Sequence record: MK327935.1
From: Escherichia phage vB_EcoM_G2494
Direction: 5' to 3' (one strand)
Length of the DNA stretch: 64,000 nucleotides
Shown here: positions 1 through 42,451 of the stretch, piece by piece
Layout of the letters: each line of letters starts with the position of its first letter
How positions within the stretch are numbered: the first letter of the stretch is position 1
Notes under the pieces: generated by a model
Database searches by the model: none
What the model saw: the letters and a program-made list of their open reading frames with translations, nothing else
What the model was told of the DNA's origin: nothing
Program-made: the position numbers and the translations under genes

Positions 1-438
1 TCTCTGAAAGATGTTTTCGTTACTCACAATGTTGTAGTACCGGAAGAATCTGTAGACGTTGTTTCTGAACTTGACGAAGCACTCAAAGAAGAAAAAGAAA
101 AAACCTCCGAACTCTTTGATGCCAAACTGCAACTTGAAAGCGAAATTCGTGGCATGAAGCGCGAACAAGCGATCAATGAAAGCACTCGTGATCTTTCCGA
201 TACTCAGAAAGAAAAAGTAACCGCGCTGATTGAAGGTCTGGAATATAGCGAAACTTTCGATAAGAAATTAACTGCAATTGTCGAAATGGTTGCTAAGAAA
301 GAAGACAAACCAGCGAAGATTGAAGAATCACTAAATACTGATGCCGACAAGCTGAATGTTATTGCAGAAGCTGTCGAAGAATCAGAGAAAAAGGCAACTG
401 TAGATTCCGGCGTATCCCGCTACCTGAATTTCATCTAA
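1..438 (+). CDS. 22: prohead core scaffold protein gp22, C-terminal part (5' end lies upstream of window)
   Basis: Frame 1 is open from base 1 to TAA 436-438; Lys/Glu-rich coiled sequence; sits directly upstream of gp23 as in T4-type genomes. Confidence 0.7.
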   Translation, partial: SLKDVFVTHNVVVPEESVDVVSELDEALKEEKEKTSELFDAKLQLESEIRGMKREQAINESTRDLSDTQKEKVTALIEGLEYSETFDKKLTAIVEMVAKKEDKPAKIEESLNTDADKLNVIAEAVEESEKKATVDSGVSRYLNFI

Positions 439-2816: not shown

Positions 2817-4058
2817 ATGACTCATATTTTTACTGAACTGTTGCGGGAATCTACTTCCTCAGTAGCTAACCAGACAGCGCGACCGCAACTATTATCATTA
2901 ACTCGCGCGGTAAACAACCTGATTTTCTCTGATCTGGTAGCAATCCAGCCAACGGATCAACCAGTATCTGCATTGTACGGCCTACGTTATCTTAATCGTG
3001 ATGGTCAGATGACTTTCCGAACTGCTGCGACCTACGGTGGCGCGGCTGGTGATCGCACAGAGATTGAAGAGTTTTCAAAAGAAAAATCTTATGACGAAGG
3101 CGCACTGTTCAAATCAGGCGATGTTGTATACGAAGTTGTGACCGCTGGTACAGTCGGTGAAGATGCCGAAACTCCAGAATCTGCAATCTTTAAAGGCGTA
3201 ATGACAAACAAAATTCGTTTCTATAGCGATTGTGCATCGGTAGAATACTTTGAAGATAAAAACACCGAAATTGCGTCTACCTCTATGCAGTTTGACAAGT
3301 GGCAAGTTAATGTAGGTTCTCGTAAACTGAAAACCTCGTTCACCACTGAATTAATGCAGGATCTTGAGGCAAGCCAAATCAACTCTGAAAACTCTGTAAT
3401 TGATCTTCTGGCTACTGTTGCTTCCGAAGAGATCAACAAAGATATTATTCAGAAGTTGATCACTGTATCATCTCGCTATAAAATTAAAGGGATCACCCCT
3501 GATGGCGTACTTTCTCTCGTTAGCGTTCAGGATGCACCAACACAATCGCGTGAACTTTACCGCTATGCTTGCGAGATGAGCAATCAAATGTTGCGGACTT
3601 CCTCCTTTGCTGGTACATACGTTTTGGCGTCTTCTCGCGTGGTTGGCCTCCTGCAATCATCCGGTTGGATGGAAGAAACCGACAATGCTCTAAGCGAAGG
3701 TCGTCTACGTTGCGGTCTGGAAGTGTACGCAGACACGACAACACCTTTCGATTATATGCTCGTTGGTTGTAAGCACATGATCGGTGATATGGAGAGTGTC
3801 GGTTCTCTGTTCTACTCCCCATATACAGAAGCCGACGGCGCTGGCGCGTATAAGAGCGTAATTGACCCTAATAGCTTCCAGCATCATGTAGCTATTATGA
3901 ATCGTTATTCACTCTCTGTCAACCCATACACATCAAAAGTTGATCAGGAAGAACACCAGGTCATCAAGGGTGACGATTGGGGTAAAATGGCTGGACGTTC
4001 AGAAATGTCCTACATTTTAGGAATCGAACTGCCACCACTTGAGATTGACAACGCTTAA
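2817..4058 (+). CDS. 24: capsid vertex protein gp24
   Basis: Collinear similarity to T4 gp24 (ELLREST start, C-terminal MAGRS motif); true ATG at 2817, the ORF-track start at 2769 is a TTG. Confidence 0.93.
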   Translation: MTHIFTELLRESTSSVANQTARPQLLSLTRAVNNLIFSDLVAIQPTDQPVSALYGLRYLNRDGQMTFRTAATYGGAAGDRTEIEEFSKEKSYDEGALFKSGDVVYEVVTAGTVGEDAETPESAIFKGVMTNKIRFYSDCASVEYFEDKNTEIASTSMQFDKWQVNVGSRKLKTSFTTELMQDLEASQINSENSVIDLLATVASEEINKDIIQKLITVSSRYKIKGITPDGVLSLVSVQDAPTQSRELYRYACEMSNQMLRTSSFAGTYVLASSRVVGLLQSSGWMEETDNALSEGRLRCGLEVYADTTTPFDYMLVGCKHMIGDMESVGSLFYSPYTEADGAGAYKSVIDPNSFQHHVAIMNRYSLSVNPYTSKVDQEEHQVIKGDDWGKMAGRSEMSYILGIELPPLEIDNA

Positions 4059-19602: not shown

Positions 19603-21654
19603 TTACATTTTAAATTTATCTGGCATTGCGTCTACCGATACCAGATCAGCGATAAGCTGACGTAGAGTTGCCTTATCTGCTTTCTTACGTTCGGTTTTAG
19701 CTTCGGTAATAAATCTGGAGAAAGACAGGTCAGAAGCAGGTTTAACAACACCTTCACGGATGAATGCATCACCGTCCGCGATCATCTCACCAGATTCTTG
19801 TAATGCTGCCAGTTCATTTTTGTTCATAATATGTGCCTCAATGTAATAAGTTTCTTGTGAATCCGTCGATGCCGTAGCACGAGTTACCGTATCAAAGGAT
19901 AACACAACACCGCGAGGAAGTAAAATCTCGCATTCTTTGTAAGCAAATGCTTTGTTACCTACTGGCAACACAGGGATGTTTTCCGCGCCAGCAATGGAGA
20001 AAGCAACATTAGCGCCACCTTCACCGCGAGAGCCAGCCATAGAATCAACACCAGCAACGGCACTAGCCACGTTTGCATTCCAGCCGCCAAAAATGTTAGG
20101 TGCAAGGGAAGTGCTCACATAGTTTTTAAAGTAAAACGCTTTTTGCTTACGTGCAGTTTCCCACATTTGCGACCGGAAGTCCATACCACGATACAGAATA
20201 GTACCCGGATCAAGTTTAACGCCATAGTTGGAGAAGGCATTATCCAGTGCATCACACATCTTGACCAATTCTTCTGGATCTGCGATGCCTTCAAACTCTT
20301 CCAGCTTACGGTCGGTTAGGAAGTTGTTCATATTGATGTATGCTGCATCGGCATATTCGCTCAACACAAAACCTTCCGCGCCTGGCAGATCAAGATCAAT
20401 ATTTGCCATCATTTCACCCATGTTGCTAGCAATTGCTTCAAACATACCGGAAGCAACATTACGTAGGGCATCGGTTTTAATCTGGGTGATATGACTACGC
20501 AGCATTTCAGCTTTTACATCTGCTGGCATAGACTGGTCTACTCGATCCATTGCCAGGGCGGTGATCTTGTTTTCGAATACTTCCTCGCTCATGATTTCTT
20601 TTAAGCGTTTGATTGATGCTGCGATAACTTCCGCAGACAACGGATCATATTGATCCTGAACTTTTACCAGTTCGCTTACTGCGTATTTTGCATCGGCTTC
20701 GCTTTCAAAAATAGTACGCATGAAACCATAGCGAGTGATAATATCACTTGTCCATTCATTCAGAGAACGGGCGGTTGAACGTTCTAAGGCTTGACGATCA
20801 ATCAGAGTATTAAACTGTTTCTTAGGTTCGGCTTCGGTGATATCTTCTTCCGGTTTAAGATTAATTTTTTCTGGATGATTCACATAGTCGCTGTTATAGG
20901 TCGCTTGAGTTTTCAGCATTTCTTCTTTAGTCAAACGAGATTTAGCCGCTACGCGTTGTTCCGCTTCCGCGTTTCGTTCTTCTTCTGACACCAGACTAGC
21001 CGCATACGCCTCATCTTTAGTCAGAGATTCACCAGTAGCCTTAGATACCCAGCGATCACCTAAATCACTTTCTACTTTAGTGAACAAGGAATCATCAAGT
21101 TTAATCCCTTTAATCTTATCAATCGCCATACCGCGACGTTTGACAACAACTAAAGCGATCTTTTTGCTGGTCATTACTTCCTGCTGGAATACTTCAAACT
21201 TCGGTGTACGACGCACCAAACGCTCTATAACGCGCTTAACCAGTTCGGTCTTACCTTTCATGCGGGATACGTTAAAACGGAACATAACAGCGTCTAATTG
21301 CGCTTTACGGGCTGTTTCCATAACCACATCAAAAGCACTTGCCATAACTGCAATCGGGTTATCGCCTAGACCATTTTTAAGCTGTACAATACGACCGCTT
21401 TTGTTCATTTCGCACAGTACAACATGTGCGGTCTTGTCACCCATACGAATGATTTTAGGTGTTTTGTTGGTGAAGTTACAAAGACGGACAATCACATCTT
21501 TATCGCGTGTCTGTACTGCAAAAAGCTGTTTAGGATTCTGCTTAGGCTTTAAGCACTGTACCGGAGCAATACTGCCAAAGTTTTCTTCCTCTTCCGTCAA
21601 CAGCCATTTCTCGAAAGATTCAATCATTAGATCGTCGATTTCTAAGTTAAACAT
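19603..21654 (-). CDS. alt: Alt ADP-ribosyltransferase (packaged early-acting ART)
   Basis: 683 aa; C-terminal YRGMDFRS ... YVSTSLAP ... YKECEILLPRG R-S-ExE motifs; position between 54 and 30 as in T4. Confidence 0.8.
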   Translation of the reverse strand: MFNLEIDDLMIESFEKWLLTEEEENFGSIAPVQCLKPKQNPKQLFAVQTRDKDVIVRLCNFTNKTPKIIRMGDKTAHVVLCEMNKSGRIVQLKNGLGDNPIAVMASAFDVVMETARKAQLDAVMFRFNVSRMKGKTELVKRVIERLVRRTPKFEVFQQEVMTSKKIALVVVKRRGMAIDKIKGIKLDDSLFTKVESDLGDRWVSKATGESLTKDEAYAASLVSEEERNAEAEQRVAAKSRLTKEEMLKTQATYNSDYVNHPEKINLKPEEDITEAEPKKQFNTLIDRQALERSTARSLNEWTSDIITRYGFMRTIFESEADAKYAVSELVKVQDQYDPLSAEVIAASIKRLKEIMSEEVFENKITALAMDRVDQSMPADVKAEMLRSHITQIKTDALRNVASGMFEAIASNMGEMMANIDLDLPGAEGFVLSEYADAAYINMNNFLTDRKLEEFEGIADPEELVKMCDALDNAFSNYGVKLDPGTILYRGMDFRSQMWETARKQKAFYFKNYVSTSLAPNIFGGWNANVASAVAGVDSMAGSRGEGGANVAFSIAGAENIPVLPVGNKAFAYKECEILLPRGVVLSFDTVTRATASTDSQETYYIEAHIMNKNELAALQESGEMIADGDAFIREGVVKPASDLSFSRFITEAKTERKKADKATLRQLIADLVSVDAMPDKFKM

Positions 21655-22006: not shown

Positions 22007-22186
22007 TTAGAACATTTTTGAAATTAATTCTGCTTTGATTTCGCAGAGAACATCTAAAGATTTCTCGTCACCCGCTTTTGCTGCTTCTGCTTGCATTTTT
22101 GAAATGGCTTCAATCTCAGTGCAATTATAAGCCGCTTGAACTTTAGCGATTGCGAGGATTGCCGATTCGATGGTTAAGTGTTTTAT
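22007..22186 (-). CDS. hypothetical protein, ATA at expected start position (possible pseudogene or non-canonical start)
   Basis: 59-codon open frame placed exactly like neighbouring genes behind AGGAGAATCAAAC, but start codon is ATA. Confidence 0.3.
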   Translation of the reverse strand: MKHLTIESAILAIAKVQAAYNCTEIEAISKMQAEAAKAGDEKSLDVLCEIKAELISKMF

Positions 22187-22218
22187 GTTTGATTCTCCTT
22201 TCGTTTCGGTATGTGTGT

Positions 22219-22247
22219 ATTATAGGGGATCGATGATCCCCTGTCAA
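22219..22247 (-). promoter_or_regulatory. early promoter, consensus TTGACA-17-TATAAT with perfect palindromic spacer GGGGATCATCGATCCCC
   Basis: Read on minus strand; A-tract UP element upstream. Confidence 0.7.
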
Positions 22248-22255
22248 CAACTTTT

Positions 22256-22774
22256 TTAGTTATTTTTTAATTGCTCATCTTGCAATAGGGCAATCACATG
22301 CTGGCGATGTTCTTCCGATTGAGGCACACCGAAAAAGTTTGTTTTGTAGAAATACTCTAATCGGTCTTCTCGTGTGCTCTCTTCCATCATGATCGCGGGT
22401 AGTCCGAGATTTCGGAAACGTCGCTTTTCTGCTGGCGTAAAATCACTGTAATACATCATAGAATCATCATTACCAGCAATGCTAAACTCATCCTTCATGA
22501 AGGAGAATATTGCGTTTAAACGCTGTTTACCGTCCACGATTTCGATCTCATAGCGAGAGCCATCATCAATCTTAGCCATTGCGATAGCACCAACCGGAAA
22601 ATCATTAATCAGGTTTTCGATAAACATACGTTTGTTTTCGGTGTCCCATACTAAAGGACGCTGATAATCTGGGTTCATGTTGATATAGCCATCTTCTAAC
22701 CATGCATCATAAACAGAGATGACAAAGTTTTTAGTATTGGTATAGTAACGGCGTTTAGGCGTTAAACGGTTCAT
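22256..22774 (-). CDS. DUF262 / ParB-like domain protein (172 aa)
   Basis: DYQRPLVW and DGKQR motifs; ATG at 22774 with AGGAG SD, 1 nt after upstream stop (ORF-track start 22810 overlaps the upstream gene). Confidence 0.6.
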   Translation of the reverse strand: MNRLTPKRRYYTNTKNFVISVYDAWLEDGYINMNPDYQRPLVWDTENKRMFIENLINDFPVGAIAMAKIDDGSRYEIEIVDGKQRLNAIFSFMKDEFSIAGNDDSMMYYSDFTPAEKRRFRNLGLPAIMMEESTREDRLEYFYKTNFFGVPQSEEHRQHVIALLQDEQLKNN

Positions 22775-22775
22775 G

Positions 22776-23105
22776 TTATAGTCTCCTGAATGGATCATCA
22801 CGTAAATCAATATCTTTTAAGAACTCATCCCATGAATGGCGGATATTGTTCTTAATTCTCCAGATAAGAGCAGGGATTGAACGCTCTCCCATCTGGAAGT
22901 ATGGATCATATGATCCGTATGCCCAATATGCTACTACAATTCCACAATCAGCGCAATAGTATTCTATTTCACTTGCTGGCGACAAAAGTCCATCAATATG
23001 ATCGGTGATCTTGCTTTCGATGTTATGGCTATGACAATCAGGGCAACGGATGCAATGACCTTGTTTATCGTAATTTGATGTTAGTGAATACTTAAACAAT
23101 CTCAT
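22776..23105 (-). CDS. Cys-rich zinc-ribbon protein (109 aa)
   Basis: CIRCPDCHSH ... CADCG cysteine pairs. Confidence 0.55.
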   Translation of the reverse strand: MRLFKYSLTSNYDKQGHCIRCPDCHSHNIESKITDHIDGLLSPASEIEYYCADCGIVVAYWAYGSYDPYFQMGERSIPALIWRIKNNIRHSWDEFLKDIDLRDDPFRRL

Positions 23106-23821
23106 TATAGATCCTTATTTGCTTCAAATACTGCCTTTGCGAATCCTCGCGGGGTAAGTGACCTTATAGTCTTTGTTTTCGTTCCTTTCCCGCCTAGCTT
23201 AGAATGCTGTTTACTGTACCCTTTATTAATCTGCAACGGTTTCTTTTCTGGCATTATAAAGCCTTGTCCGGTCCATAAGCAAGTCTTTTTTGGGTACATA
23301 TCACGGGCGGCAATATACTCAGGAAACGTAGGATGCTTATCATCTTCCGGCAAATAACCGCCATATTCCCACGGATGGAACATATAATCAGGCTTACGCC
23401 ACATGCTAGAGATAACGCTTACAGGATTCTCTATCATGTAGGGAACTCCTAGCCATTCACCCAAATAAGCGGTTATTTTGGCTGCCCTTACATCATGAAC
23501 TTGAATCAATGGTCCTTGTTCTCGTTTCTTTCGTTCAAAGTGCGCAGCGCCACTAACAGCTAAATTGGTGCATGGTGGGAATGCAAAGATAATATCCGGT
23601 TTCCCCCATTCAAGGTCCATTGCTCTTTCTAGCCAGTTAAAATCAATCCATGTGTTTACATAGGTAATGTTTGGATGTTCAAATCTGGTATTATACTTTT
23701 TGTATGTTCCGTGGTCGCCATCGTCAGCATTAAAGCAGATCACCTTATGACCTGCTTTAGCCCATTCTAACCCCATTATCCCCGATCCGTCAAAGTTACA
23801 GAATATTAATTTTTGTTTCAT
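23105..23821 (-). CDS. compact cytosine-C5 methyltransferase-like protein (238 aa)
   Basis: FxGxG (res 10-14), acidic FNADD (res 30-34), PPC (res 82-84) and ENP (res 131-133) with spacing like C5-MTase motifs I, II, IV, VI; no obvious target-recognition domain. Confidence 0.5.
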   Translation of the reverse strand: MKQKLIFCNFDGSGIMGLEWAKAGHKVICFNADDGDHGTYKKYNTRFEHPNITYVNTWIDFNWLERAMDLEWGKPDIIFAFPPCTNLAVSGAAHFERKKREQGPLIQVHDVRAAKITAYLGEWLGVPYMIENPVSVISSMWRKPDYMFHPWEYGGYLPEDDKHPTFPEYIAARDMYPKKTCLWTGQGFIMPEKKPLQINKGYSKQHSKLGGKGTKTKTIRSLTPRGFAKAVFEANKDL

Positions 23822-24063
23822 ATACGCCCCTTTAATCCAACACAGATTTTAGAAGGTTCTTTGCCGTGCCACATTAAGTAAAGTCCGTTAATGCGGCCTT
23901 GTTTTGTATATGATTCTTTTCTGATCTTCTTATAGTGTCGTGCTTCCTCAGCCGATTGTTTAGAATACCAATCATAAAGGAAGAGGCACAAAGGCCACCC
24001 ATTAGCGGCCTTAATGCAGTTATTAAGAAATTCCTTATTGCGTTTAATTAATTTTCTTTTCAC
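23818..24063 (-). CDS. hypothetical basic protein (81 aa, GTG start)
   Basis: GTG start overlapping upstream stop; part of coupled operon. Confidence 0.4.
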   Translation of the reverse strand: MKRKLIKRNKEFLNNCIKAANGWPLCLFLYDWYSKQSAEEARHYKKIRKESYTKQGRINGLYLMWHGKEPSKICVGLKGRI

Positions 24064-24311
24064 GCTGCCCCCATTGGTTTGATAGTAACAGAATCTAAAA
24101 GACCTTTGTTAGCCAGTTCGCGGCAAGTTTTCAGATCCGCAACTTCCCAGCCAGCCGCAATCAGGTTATCAATGAGGCTGTTAGCAACTTCTTCGCTCAT
24201 GAAAGAGCACTGTTTGCCGATGGTGTAGCGTACACGCTGTAATTTCAGTTTACGGAAGCCTTTAACGTTCAGGTCTTTAGCGATTTTCTTTGCGGTTTCG
24301 ATGTTAGCCAT
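24060..24311 (-). CDS. hypothetical protein (83 aa)
   Basis: First gene behind promoter 24352-24380; AGGAG SD. Confidence 0.55.
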   Translation of the reverse strand: MANIETAKKIAKDLNVKGFRKLKLQRVRYTIGKQCSFMSEEVANSLIDNLIAAGWEVADLKTCRELANKGLLDSVTIKPMGAA

Positions 24312-24351: not shown

Positions 24352-24380
24352 ATTGTAGGGGAGTTATCCTCCCCTGTCAA
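24352..24380 (-). promoter_or_regulatory. early promoter TTGACA-17-TACAAT with palindromic spacer GGGGAGTTATCCTCCCC
   Basis: Read on minus strand. Confidence 0.6.
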
Positions 24381-24595: not shown

Positions 24596-24625
24596 ATTAT
24601 AGGGGATCTCCCGATCCCCGTCAAC
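24596..24625 (-). promoter_or_regulatory. early promoter (TTGACG-18-TATAAT) with palindromic spacer GGGGATCGGGAGATCCCC
   Basis: Read on minus strand. Confidence 0.55.
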
Positions 24626-28389: not shown

Positions 28390-28418
28390 AGTATAGGGGA
28401 TCGGTGATCCCCTGTCAA
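28390..28418 (-). promoter_or_regulatory. early promoter TTGACA-17-TATACT with palindromic spacer GGGGATCACCGATCCCC
   Basis: Read on minus strand. Confidence 0.6.
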
Positions 28419-30201: not shown

Positions 30202-30230
30202 AGTATAGGGGATACGTGATCCCCTGTCAA
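30202..30230 (-). promoter_or_regulatory. early promoter TTGACA-17-TATACT with palindromic spacer GGGGATCACGTATCCCC
   Basis: Read on minus strand. Confidence 0.6.
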
Positions 30231-42422: not shown

Positions 42423-42451
42423 ATTATAGCGGGGATTTCTCCCCGCGTCAA
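42423..42451 (-). promoter_or_regulatory. early promoter TTGACG-17-TATAAT with palindromic spacer GCGGGGAGAAATCCCCGC
   Basis: Read on minus strand. Confidence 0.55.

Follow-up and report, generated by a model that had tools for sequence, protein, structure and literature searches.

Do the five tightly packed early genes between positions 22256 and 24311 form a single DNA/nucleotide modification or anti-restriction module, as the original prediction suggested, or are they independent genes that share a transcript? Their layout is as predicted: inspection of the sequence confirmed five ORFs, all on the minus strand, at 24311-22256 of the window (the entire 64,000-nucleotide stretch of phage DNA analysed here), behind one sigma70-type promoter. 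In the direction of transcription, the features are as follows.

24352..24380, minus strand: PeSL early promoter of the cassette; TTGACA, a 17-nt spacer with the stem-loop GGGGAG-GATAA-CTCCCC, and TACAAT; 11/12 consensus positions
24060..24311, minus strand: orf1, 83 aa, ATG start; homologue of RB49p190
23818..24063, minus strand: orf2, 81 aa, GTG start within a GTGA overlap with the orf1 stop; homologue of RB49p189.1
23105..23821, minus strand: putative Dcm-like C5-cytosine DNA methyltransferase, 238 aa, ATGA overlap with orf2; homologue of RB49p189
22776..23105, minus strand: Cys-rich zinc-ribbon-like protein, 109 aa, TAATG overlap with the methyltransferase gene; homologue of RB49p188
22256..22774, minus strand: stand-alone DUF262/ParB-like NTPase-domain protein, 172 aa; homologue of RB49p187
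22219..22247, minus strand: downstream PeSL; TTGACA, 17 nt with the stem-loop GGGGATC-ATC-GATCCCC, and TATAAT; 12/12 consensus positions

The predicted early-type promoter and translational coupling also hold, neighbouring genes overlapping in GTGA, ATGA or TAATG or, in one case, being separated by 1 nt. Each of the five starts has a Shine-Dalgarno-like GGAG, AGGGG or AAGGA ahead of it, and the motifs originally quoted (DYQRPLVW, DGKQR and FPPC) are all found in the translations. The single-nucleotide gap lies between the zinc-ribbon stop and the ATG at 22774, which is the real start of the DUF262 gene; a TTG-started ORF of 184 aa in a mechanical ORF list was rejected, as the annotated starts in RB49 and TB34 differ from it.

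RB49, TB34, kaaroe and other Krischvirus genomes match the region at 97-98% identity and have the same annotated gene order; on this similarity, the window is that of an RB49-like Krischvirus. The five genes correspond to RB49p190 to p187 and are found in about 56 GenBank genomes. Thus, what had been presented as a module without a match to any described function is a conserved, annotated Krischvirus block, whose labels include 'DNA methyltransferase', 'Dcm' and 'DUF262 domain protein'; the five-gene early cassette of RB49-like coliphages is already known. Its gene content varies. In L086, a PeSL-bearing relative represented by one 2.5-kb metagenomic contig, the order is orf1-orf2-Zn-ribbon-47-aa ORF-DUF262, with the same ATGA junction and with the methylase absent, and a homologue of this 47-aa ORF is found in kaaroe as an additional gene of 59 aa. 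All four ORFs common to the cassette and the approximately 70%-identical L086 are under purifying selection, dN/dS being 0.12-0.25 for three of them and dS being saturated for orf2. In contrast, the five genes of TB34 and SAP are identical (0 mismatches), and a 79-bp tandem duplication of the PeSL and one extra T are the sole differences between the two phages in this region. Since the five genes are the same in both, we rejected the block as the reason why SAP is hmC-modified and TB34 is not.

The borders of the block belong to a described class of elements. PeSLs were defined, and their promoter and terminator activity and role in shuffling shown, in a study in which the stem-loops terminated or attenuated transcription and the elements emerged as the shuffling units of RB49 and phi1 (PMC2839356). 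The present cassette conforms to that definition: at each end stands a sigma70-like promoter with a G/C stem-loop inside it, and a Shine-Dalgarno sequence and a start codon come next. The composite promoter/stem-loop motif occurs six times in the window, against none expected, and the estimated folding energies are -19.4 kcal/mol (z = -5.0) for the hairpin at 24380-24352 and -13.3 kcal/mol (z = -2.9) for that at 22247-22219. Immediately behind the DUF262 stop codon, the latter element ends the cassette and serves as promoter for the next gene. The resemblance to the PeSL ORFan cassettes of RB49 and phi1 (Arbiol et al. 2010; Comeau et al. 2014) extends from the near-consensus sigma70-type promoter, with a polyG/polyC stem-loop between -35 and -10 on both flanks, to the location of the block in a hyperplastic region, adjoining alt. 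Most of the described PeSL cassettes contain a single ORFan; here there are five coupled genes, in kaaroe six, and in L086 five without the methylase. From the PeSL work we infer that host sigma70 RNA polymerase would produce an early transcript from the PeSL at 24380-24352, that the stem-loop of the next PeSL, at 22247-22219, would attenuate it, and that the five ORFs would be translated through coupling. An internal promoter-like site at 23793-23764 (10/12) was dismissed, because the scan gave seven such sites in the region and 9.2 would be found by chance.

As a whole, the locus is probably best explained as one PeSL-bounded accessory-gene cassette, in the hyperplastic region of an RB49-like Krischvirus genome, which combines a stand-alone Dcm-like methylase with an effector-less DUF262 protein and has a mosaic origin. 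The five genes would have been gained and lost separately, and the methylase, working alone, would have been inserted into, or deleted from, an orf1-orf2-Zn-ribbon-(small ORF)-DUF262 array. The outcome is mainly an annotation clean-up: a named Dcm-like methylase and a block recognized as a PeSL cassette with variable gene content.

We next consider the methylase. The proposal that the 238-aa protein is a compact enzyme of the C5-cytosine-methyltransferase type with a Pro-Cys nucleophile is borne out, as motifs I, IV and VI are kept and the structural matches are C5-methyltransferases (C5-MTases). Motif I (F10-D-G12-S13-G14), motif IV (P82-P83-C84) and motif VI (E131-N132-P133) are invariant in 30 homologues; motif I aligns to FSGAGG of M.HaeIII, and the PPC of the family profile aligns to the M.HaeIII PPCQ, which contains the catalytic C71. 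Other key residues are W141-R142, K178-K179 and the C-terminal IRSLTPRGFAKAV. The Pfam search suggested as a check bore this out in part: PF00145 was matched over residues 10-100 (E = 0.03), but at 14.2 bits against a gathering score of 22. NCBIfam returned nothing for four of the five cassette proteins, the methylase included. A direct sequence search against solved structures found none for the methylase at E <= 10, and the family profile reached M.HaeIII in PDB at E = 0.8. A fold search was needed to place the protein; the best matches of the predicted model were DNMT3B and bacterial C5-MTases, in agreement with a C5-MTase fold.

Compared with the catalytic domain of DNMT3A/DNMT3B and with M.HhaI and M.HaeIII (PF00145), the phage protein is just 12-16% identical and about 50-90 residues shorter than the smallest of them. 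Its motif VIII is reduced to W-R, and motifs IX and X appear to be merged in the C-terminal IRSLTPRGFA. Between W141-R142 and I219-R-S-L-T-P-R lie about 75 highly conserved residues (143-218), predicted to be mostly loops with one strand and short helices. This segment between motifs VIII and IX is plausibly a minimal target-recognition domain (TRD), standing in for a large one in a DNMT3-like manner.

The family to which the methylase belongs, phrog_757, is found in 1518 of 50,697 phage records. It includes bas06_0055 of Hanrivervirus KarlJaspers, which is 55% identical over the full length. The K42 strain is near-identical to KarlJaspers, and its Dcm, expressed alone, raised 5mC in msDNA and triggered retron Ec86, whereas a catalytic mutant did neither; the 5mC was shown by LC-MS (10.1101/2023.08.16.553469). 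By alignment, the published K42 Dcm residues C82, E128 and K175/K176 correspond to C84, E131 and K178/K179. The two proteins have similar lengths (236 and 238 aa) and the same motif I, PPC, ENP and KK residues, but KarlJaspers is a 51-kb siphovirus and the phage studied here a 165-kb myovirus, where the gene, unlike that of KarlJaspers, is one of five translationally coupled genes in a PeSL cassette. By analogy with the homologue that provides the experimental backing, the name Dcm-like phage C5-cytosine methyltransferase (phrog_757) can be given to the 238-aa protein. Gene 3 would thus encode a compact, stand-alone, SAM-dependent C5-cytosine DNA methyltransferase, an activity demonstrated for the homologue.

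What might this enzyme methylate? The CCWGG specificity of K42 Dcm was deduced from msDNA motif mutants and the analogy with E. coli Dcm rather than mapped (10.1101/2023.08.16.553469). For the Krischvirus enzyme, a rare short site is the most likely target, CCWGG being the one proposed for the family; methylation would then shield replicating phage DNA from EcoRII-type restriction, at the cost of making the methylase a potential trigger of retron Ec86. The literature largely goes against a C5 modification in virion DNA, whose absence the original prediction would have taken as counter-evidence: no modified nucleoside was detected in virion DNA of TB34, and HpaII and NheI, both 5mC-sensitive, cut RB49 DNA (PMC13390438, PMC4041780). 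Therefore, any methylation must be rare. In the 64 kb of the window CCWGG is depleted (29 sites, with 57-71 expected), and its full methylation would amount to about 0.2% of dC. Methylation at that level may be compatible with the TB34 and RB49 data, as bulk HPLC could miss it or attribute it to host Dcm.

The same data could mean that virion DNA is unmarked because the main substrate is something other than the phage genome (host DNA, single-stranded or hairpin DNA such as msDNA, or another nucleic acid), or because the enzyme is silent in the laboratory. Besides the TB34 and RB49 results, this reading has in its favor that the retron msDNA hairpin is the only demonstrated substrate of the phrog_757 family and that, in BASEL, the methyltransferases of Drexlerviridae phages showed no connection with resistance to restriction. 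We nevertheless consider it unlikely. The depletion of CCWGG puts even complete methylation within the range that bulk HPLC could overlook, and thousands of phage homologues have the same catalytic residues without exception, a pattern that points to an enzymatic role maintained by selection in phages. Rare-site methylation of the phage genome is the reading we retain. Krischviruses carry a candidate Ec86 trigger, yet they are routinely grown on E. coli B, of which the BL21 derivative has native Ec86. Krischvirus on E. coli B is therefore a convenient system for asking whether the methylase triggers Ec86 and, if so, how the phage escapes.

The last protein of the cassette was predicted to be a DUF262 protein, and Pfam confirms the domain as genuine (PF03235; 72.8 bits, the cut-off being 33.2). 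Y37-Q38-R39, D81-G-K-Q-R85 and N146-x2-G-V-P-Q-S-E-E-H156 are invariant in homologues of 35-98% identity, and dN/dS is 0.18. The 172 residues have the N-terminal DUF262 NTPase domain in common with GmrSD, BrxU, SspE and DndI. However, Pfam, PADLOC and NCBIfam revealed no DUF1524/HNH nuclease in the protein; residue 172 is its last, and the PeSL promoter occupies the 30 nt that follow. It thus differs from these enzymes, and also from nuclease-less GmrS1 of E. coli ECOR17, in having neither a DUF1524/HNH domain nor an adjacent nuclease gene. In contrast to GmrSD-type host enzymes, it is encoded by a phage, is expressed early and falls into a separate clade, whose members are 160-190 aa long, or about 280 aa with an N-terminal extension. 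The 150 best representatives among 1.8 billion proteins are all 90-344 aa long, the domain being C-terminal in the longer ones, and none of these 150 nearest cluster representatives has a C-terminal nuclease; a Pfam scan of the extensions in the approximately 280-aa relatives found no domain. Because the nuclease is missing from both the protein and its nearest relatives, it is not a GmrSD enzyme. Judged by sequence, its clade consists of short proteins, most of them from phages, and comprises 71 clusters at E <= 1e-30, besides which there are thousands of remoter relatives. Gene 5 would then encode a complete DUF262/ParB-like NTPase domain without an effector domain, which may bind or hydrolyse NTP and act via DNA or a partner protein rather than by cleavage.

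Could such a protein be a weapon against host enzymes that contain the same domain? The DUF262 protein, possibly together with the zinc-ribbon protein and orf1/orf2, might be a counter-defence decoy that mimics the NTPase/dimerisation domain of GmrSD/BrxU/SspE-type enzymes, or a GmrS1-type subunit, and poisons them; it would then protect phage DNA, including any 5mC added by the methylase. A complete DUF262 fold with intact YQR and DGKQR but no nuclease, expression from an early promoter and a largely phage-borne clade are all in line with this idea, as are host systems in which nuclease-less GmrS1 must pair with GmrSD2 (PMC12373910). On the other hand, SAP, whose block is identical to that of TB34, is still restricted by BrxU, and there are phages in which the DUF262 gene does not adjoin this methylase. 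On balance, a decoy seems quite improbable. Its extended form, in which the conserved orf1-orf2-Zn-ribbon-DUF262 array, which persists whether the methylase is there or not, would be a novel counter-defence system of phages whose DUF262 mimic poisons host GmrSD, GmrS1/GmrSD2, SspE or DndI, is improbable as well. If it were true, it would let Krischviruses bear the cost of a Dcm-like methylase and multiply in hosts such as E. coli B.

We return to the single modification or anti-restriction module. In its most explicit form, the five products would be one DNA/nucleotide modification machine, in which the zinc-ribbon protein and the DUF262 NTPase supply target recognition or loading for a TRD-less methylase. 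There is an analogy in the transglycosylase DpdA, which works with the ParB-like ATPase DpdB. Translational coupling behind one promoter, the joint retention of the genes in about 56 Krischvirus genomes and the short TRD-equivalent segment of the methylase all fit such a machine. Nonetheless, the five genes are distributed independently, and coupling is for that reason no mark of one functional module. Homologues of the methylase are found in 1518 phage records, of DUF262 in 327 and of the zinc-ribbon protein in 357, with 56 records each at >=90% identity that presumably come from one and the same set of Krischvirus genomes; in about 1,460-1,500 other phage records, members of the methylase family have neither partner. 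Among 80 IMG/VR methylase loci, zinc-ribbon or DUF262 genes accompany the methylase in just two, both from Krischvirus (absent from 78/80), co-occurrence being judged on gene neighbourhoods rather than whole genomes. Consistent with this, tblastn searches of the 80 loci with the four partner proteins produced matches in Krischvirus only, and clustering of neighbouring ORFs showed that methylase loci outside Krischvirus have lineage-specific neighbours such as helicases, DNA polymerase and Dam. Conversely, no methylase was seen in the gene contexts of the DUF262 homologues P0122-P0124 and P0127, of the DUF262 homologues in RB43 and Matisse or of the zinc-ribbon homologue in JenP2; in RB43, Matisse and JenP2, the neighbours are unrelated, and DUF262 and zinc-ribbon homologues do not adjoin each other either. 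Moreover, the K42 homologue is sufficient alone from a plasmid, and L086 keeps the other four genes without the methylase. A five-component machine is, therefore, highly unlikely. Some functional link among orf1, orf2, Zn-ribbon and DUF262 would fit the tight coupling in about 56 genomes and the joint retention of these four genes in L086.

The idea that the 172-aa ORF is a decaying remnant of a full-length GmrSD-type gene, cut off by recombination at the downstream PeSL, draws on the stop immediately before that PeSL and on the best PHROG profile (phrog_1583, 417 positions), matched over positions 9-183 only, but can be dismissed as extremely improbable: the 150 nearest relatives are short or have N-terminal extensions only, all three motifs are invariant across homologues of 35-98% identity, dN/dS is 0.18, and RB43 and Slopekvirus homologues are of equal length.

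The remaining products, orf1, orf2 and the zinc-ribbon protein, are conserved small proteins. The claim of a zinc ribbon stands as far as the Cys-rich, zinc-ribbon-like character of the 109-aa protein goes (C18-x2-C21-x2-C24 ... C51-x2-C54), whereas the Pfam match to Zn_Ribbon_TF (E = 1e-4) is sub-threshold. A word-indexed search with this protein found its own cluster only; it belongs to phrog_2993 (E = 3e-34), has a dN/dS of 0.12 relative to L086, and has homologues in Nonagvirus JenP1/JenP2 and Felixounavirus, where the neighbours are unrelated. The orf2 product belongs to phrog_7065 (E = 7.5e-38) and has a 70% identical homologue in L086. The orf1 product falls into phrog_14908 (E = 5e-59), a family of unknown function, and its L086 homologue is 72.5% identical, with a dN/dS of 0.25. 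Orf1 also has a weak PADLOC match to RT_UG35 (E = 2.6e-5).

On the minus strand of the window, five consecutive ORFs occupy positions 24311-22256, each start preceded by a Shine-Dalgarno-like sequence, and the block lies between two promoters of the promoter-early stem-loop (PeSL) type, in which a sigma70-type promoter carries a hairpin in its spacer.

Cassette genes and PeSL elements in the window
24380-24352, minus strand: upstream PeSL promoter, near-consensus sigma70 (TTGACA-17-TACAAT)
24311-24060, minus strand: orf1, 83 aa, ATG start
24063-23818, minus strand: orf2, 81 aa, GTG start within a GTGA overlap with the orf1 stop
23821-23105, minus strand: methyltransferase-like gene, 238 aa, ATGA overlap with orf2
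23105-22776, minus strand: Cys-rich protein gene, 109 aa, TAATG overlap
22774-22256, minus strand: DUF262 gene, 172 aa, annotated-type ATG start 1 nt past the preceding stop
22247-22219, minus strand: downstream PeSL promoter, perfect TTGACA-17-TATAAT, immediately past the DUF262 stop
22219-22247, 24352-24380, 24596-24624, 28390-28418, 30202-30230 and 42423-42451, all minus strand: six PeSL copies from a motif search of the window

The spacer hairpins of both flanking promoters are G/C-rich, with folding energies of -19.4 (24380-24352) and -13.3 kcal/mol (22247-22219), and the DUF262 ORF stops 8 nt short of the next PeSL hexamer. The window has six copies of the composite of promoter and hairpin where none would be expected by chance, and these copies mark hyperplastic-region cassettes of the vB_EcoM_G2494 Krischvirus genome. 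Layout, junctions, promoters and motif count therefore confirm the original prediction of five packed ORFs behind one promoter. In RB49 and phi1, PeSLs are strong sigma70-like promoters whose stem-loops serve as terminators or attenuators, and in hyperplastic regions the ORFans between them are shuffled by PeSL-PeSL recombination (PMC2839356; PMC4122927). Since the flanking elements are those described for RB49 and phi1, the block is a multi-gene PeSL cassette. The best-supported reading is that this early cassette carries a stand-alone Dcm-like C5-methyltransferase and a nuclease-less DUF262 protein. By analogy with the PeSL work, the genes would be expressed early, with transcription driven by the PeSL and with coupled translation.

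Earlier work had already described or annotated the block, the PeSL promoters and the methylase family. Over 2.4 kb, the region matches RB49, Phi1, TB34, kaaroe and about 50 further Krischvirus ('pseudo-T-even') genomes at 97-98% identity. In RB49 the genes are, in order, RB49p190, p189.1, p189, p188 and p187; a series of small hypothetical genes lies upstream and the alt ADP-ribosyltransferase gene downstream. Krischvirus records label the 238-aa gene 'DNA methyltransferase', 'Dcm' or 'putative C-5 cytosine DNA methylase', and one labels the last gene 'DUF262 domain protein'. In the window, the counterpart of RB49p184, a 683-aa ORF for an Alt-like RNA polymerase ADP-ribosyltransferase (19603-21654, minus strand), follows the cassette after two small genes. 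Just past the cassette, the RB49p186 homologue (22007-22187, minus strand; 59 codons) has ATA at 22187-22185 where RB49 and TB34 have ATG; its frame is otherwise intact, so that the start codon has either been lost recently or is non-canonical.

The C5-methyltransferase likeness proposed for the 238-aa protein stands on motifs and relatives and falls short on the Pfam model. The match to PF00145 was weak (14.2 bits, E = 0.03, N-terminal 90 residues) and below the 22-bit cut-off, and neither NCBIfam nor a direct PDB sequence search gave a match. On the other hand, the protein matches phrog_757 ('DNA methyltransferase') with E = 4e-90, and among its 7310 homologues the best 120 are 219-259 aa long. 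An alignment of 30 family members revealed invariant motif I (F10-x-G12-S13-G14), motif IV (P82-P83-C84), ENV-like motif VI (E131-N132-P133) and W141-R142, together with a conserved, motif IX-like C-terminus, KTKxIRSLTPRGFAxAV. In a family-profile alignment, the PPC falls on the catalytic C71 region of M.HaeIII. By tblastn, the gene is present in 1518 of 50,697 phage records, including Drexlerviridae, Guernseyvirinae-like phages, Vequintavirinae and Klebsiella Webervirus-size phages.

A homologue has been tested experimentally. In the K42 strain of the Hanrivervirus KarlJaspers, mutations that allow escape from retron Ec86 map to a 711-bp 'dcm' gene, whose product, expressed alone, is toxic only in the presence of Ec86 and raises 5mC in msDNA by LC-MS; the C82A/E128A/K175A/K176A mutant has no activity. 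The authors also built a model of the enzyme based on DNMT3A; its CCWGG specificity was not mapped but deduced from mutated msDNA motifs and from the parallel with E. coli Dcm (10.1101/2023.08.16.553469). Our comparison used the 711-bp bas06_0055 of KarlJaspers Bas06 ('Dcm-like C5 cytosine methyltransferase'). The window methylase shares 55% identity with it from end to end, its C84, E131, K178 and K179 align with the published mutant positions, and both proteins are in phrog_757. These similarities place it in an established family of compact phage C5-cytosine DNA methyltransferases that has experimental support, and they link the Krischvirus methylase explicitly to the tested K42 enzyme. BL21(DE3), an E. 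coli B derivative, has a native Ec86 operon (10.1101/2023.08.16.553469), and E. coli B is used to propagate Krischviruses (PMC4041780; PMC2839356). Krischviruses encode a candidate Ec86 trigger yet grow on E. coli B, a lead worth testing.

The assignment of the last gene to DUF262 is borne out: the 172-aa protein matches PF03235 (GmrSD_N/DUF262) with E = 5e-20, well over threshold. The three DUF262 motifs, YQR..VW, DGKQR and N..GVPQSEEH, are all present and invariant among homologues that share 35-98% identity, which makes the domain complete. A DUF1524/HNH nuclease is absent from the protein, which matches PADLOC models of DUF262-containing defence proteins in their N-terminal parts only; a profile search of PDB sequences matched DndI and BrxU. 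From its fold and motifs, this NTPase-fold protein may act through nucleotide binding together with DNA or partner binding. It might instead be a decoy for host DUF262 defence enzymes, and a host system requiring the nuclease-less GmrS1 together with GmrSD2 (PMC12373910) offers a precedent for such subunit interplay. However, BrxU still restricts phage SAP, which has the five cassette genes of TB34, and we consider a decoy unlikely.

Still less probable, and poorly supported, is the proposal that the five products form a single modification module; comparative data indicate that they do not, at least as regards the methylase. Among 80 methylase loci in IMG/VR, only the two from Krischvirus encode any of orf1, orf2, Zn-ribbon or DUF262 as well, the neighbours outside Krischvirus being lineage-specific replication genes. 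In vivo, the K42 methylase suffices alone (10.1101/2023.08.16.553469). At >=90% identity, the methylase, Zn-ribbon and DUF262 genes each occur in 56 records, presumably one shared set of Krischvirus genomes; below 90% they differ in host sets and genome types. The DUF262 homologue of RB43 and Klebsiella phage Matisse comes after an unrelated membrane-anchored protein gene, and the Zn-ribbon homologue of JenP2 lies among unrelated small genes. A 2.5-kb metagenomic contig (L086) from a PeSL-bearing relative with ~70% nucleotide identity has the order orf1-orf2-Zn-47aa-DUF262, then a PeSL, and lacks the methylase. There, the ATGA overlap that links orf2 to the methylase gene in the window links orf2 to Zn instead; the methylase has thus been inserted or deleted as exactly one gene and is separable from the remaining genes. 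The other four may be functionally linked, but the sign that they travel together is this single short contig, and since it comes from a related phage, common ancestry would account for it just as well. Kaaroe has a sixth gene between Zn and DUF262 (59 aa, 974-1153 of its locus), homologous to the 47-aa gene (841-981 of the contig) with 67% identity; the window lacks this gene, for which PHROG gave no match.

A distinct clade of nuclease-less DUF262 proteins, to which the 172-aa protein is assigned by sequence, emerged from an exhaustive profile search against 1.8 billion representatives. The search returned 71 clusters at E <= 1e-30, with members in phage contigs, RB43, Slopekvirus and Erwinia phages. 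A truncated GmrSD is a poorly supported, very improbable reading in view of the 150 best representatives, all 90-344 aa and either stand-alone (~165-190 aa) or ~250-300 aa with an uncharacterised N-terminal extension. In Slopekvirus, translational coupling joins the DUF262 homologue to a 304-aa protein encoded just after it (3004-3918 of the Matisse locus), with no similarity found to any cassette protein; RB43 has only a 41-aa ORF there.

In the 109-aa protein, the cysteines follow a C-x2-C-x2-C ... C-x2-C pattern; it has sub-threshold zinc-ribbon matches and belongs to phrog_2993 (unknown function), with homologues in Nonagvirus JenP1/JenP2 and Felixounavirus. PHROGs containing orf1 and orf2 are likewise labelled unknown function. 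Against the ~70%-identical relative, orf1, orf2, Zn-ribbon and DUF262 genes are under purifying selection (dN/dS 0.25 for orf1, 0.12 for Zn-ribbon, 0.18 for DUF262; dS saturated for orf2). Residues 12-75 of orf1 (24060-24311, minus strand) weakly match the C-terminal region (722-785 of 938; E = 2.6e-5) of RT_UG35, a PADLOC defence reverse transcriptase model.

Published data argue against bulk modification of Krischvirus DNA: HpaII and NheI, both 5mC-sensitive, cut RB49 DNA (PMC4041780). Rare-site methylation is compatible with them. Acting alone, the methylase would probably modify a rare short motif in DNA; the activity itself was demonstrated with a homologue, and we infer the site and the in-phage role. 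CCWGG occurs only 29 times in the window (57-71 expected); methylation of every site would therefore reach no more than about 0.2% of dC and, in phage grown on K-12 hosts, would look identical to host Dcm marks. CCSGG (10 versus 32-46 expected) and GGCC (26 versus 73) are also scarce, and GATC is not depleted (359 versus about 337). Such strong depletion of short GC-rich palindromes is consistent with restriction-site avoidance by a phage whose DNA is unmodified. SAP and TB34 are reported, with no explanation given, to differ in cytosine hypermodification (PMC13390438). Across their 2.9-kb region, the five cassette genes are identical; a 79-bp tandem duplication of the PeSL that separates the DUF262 gene from the p186 homologue (289-367 of the SAP locus) and one extra T at 2809 in an upstream intergenic region account for all differences.
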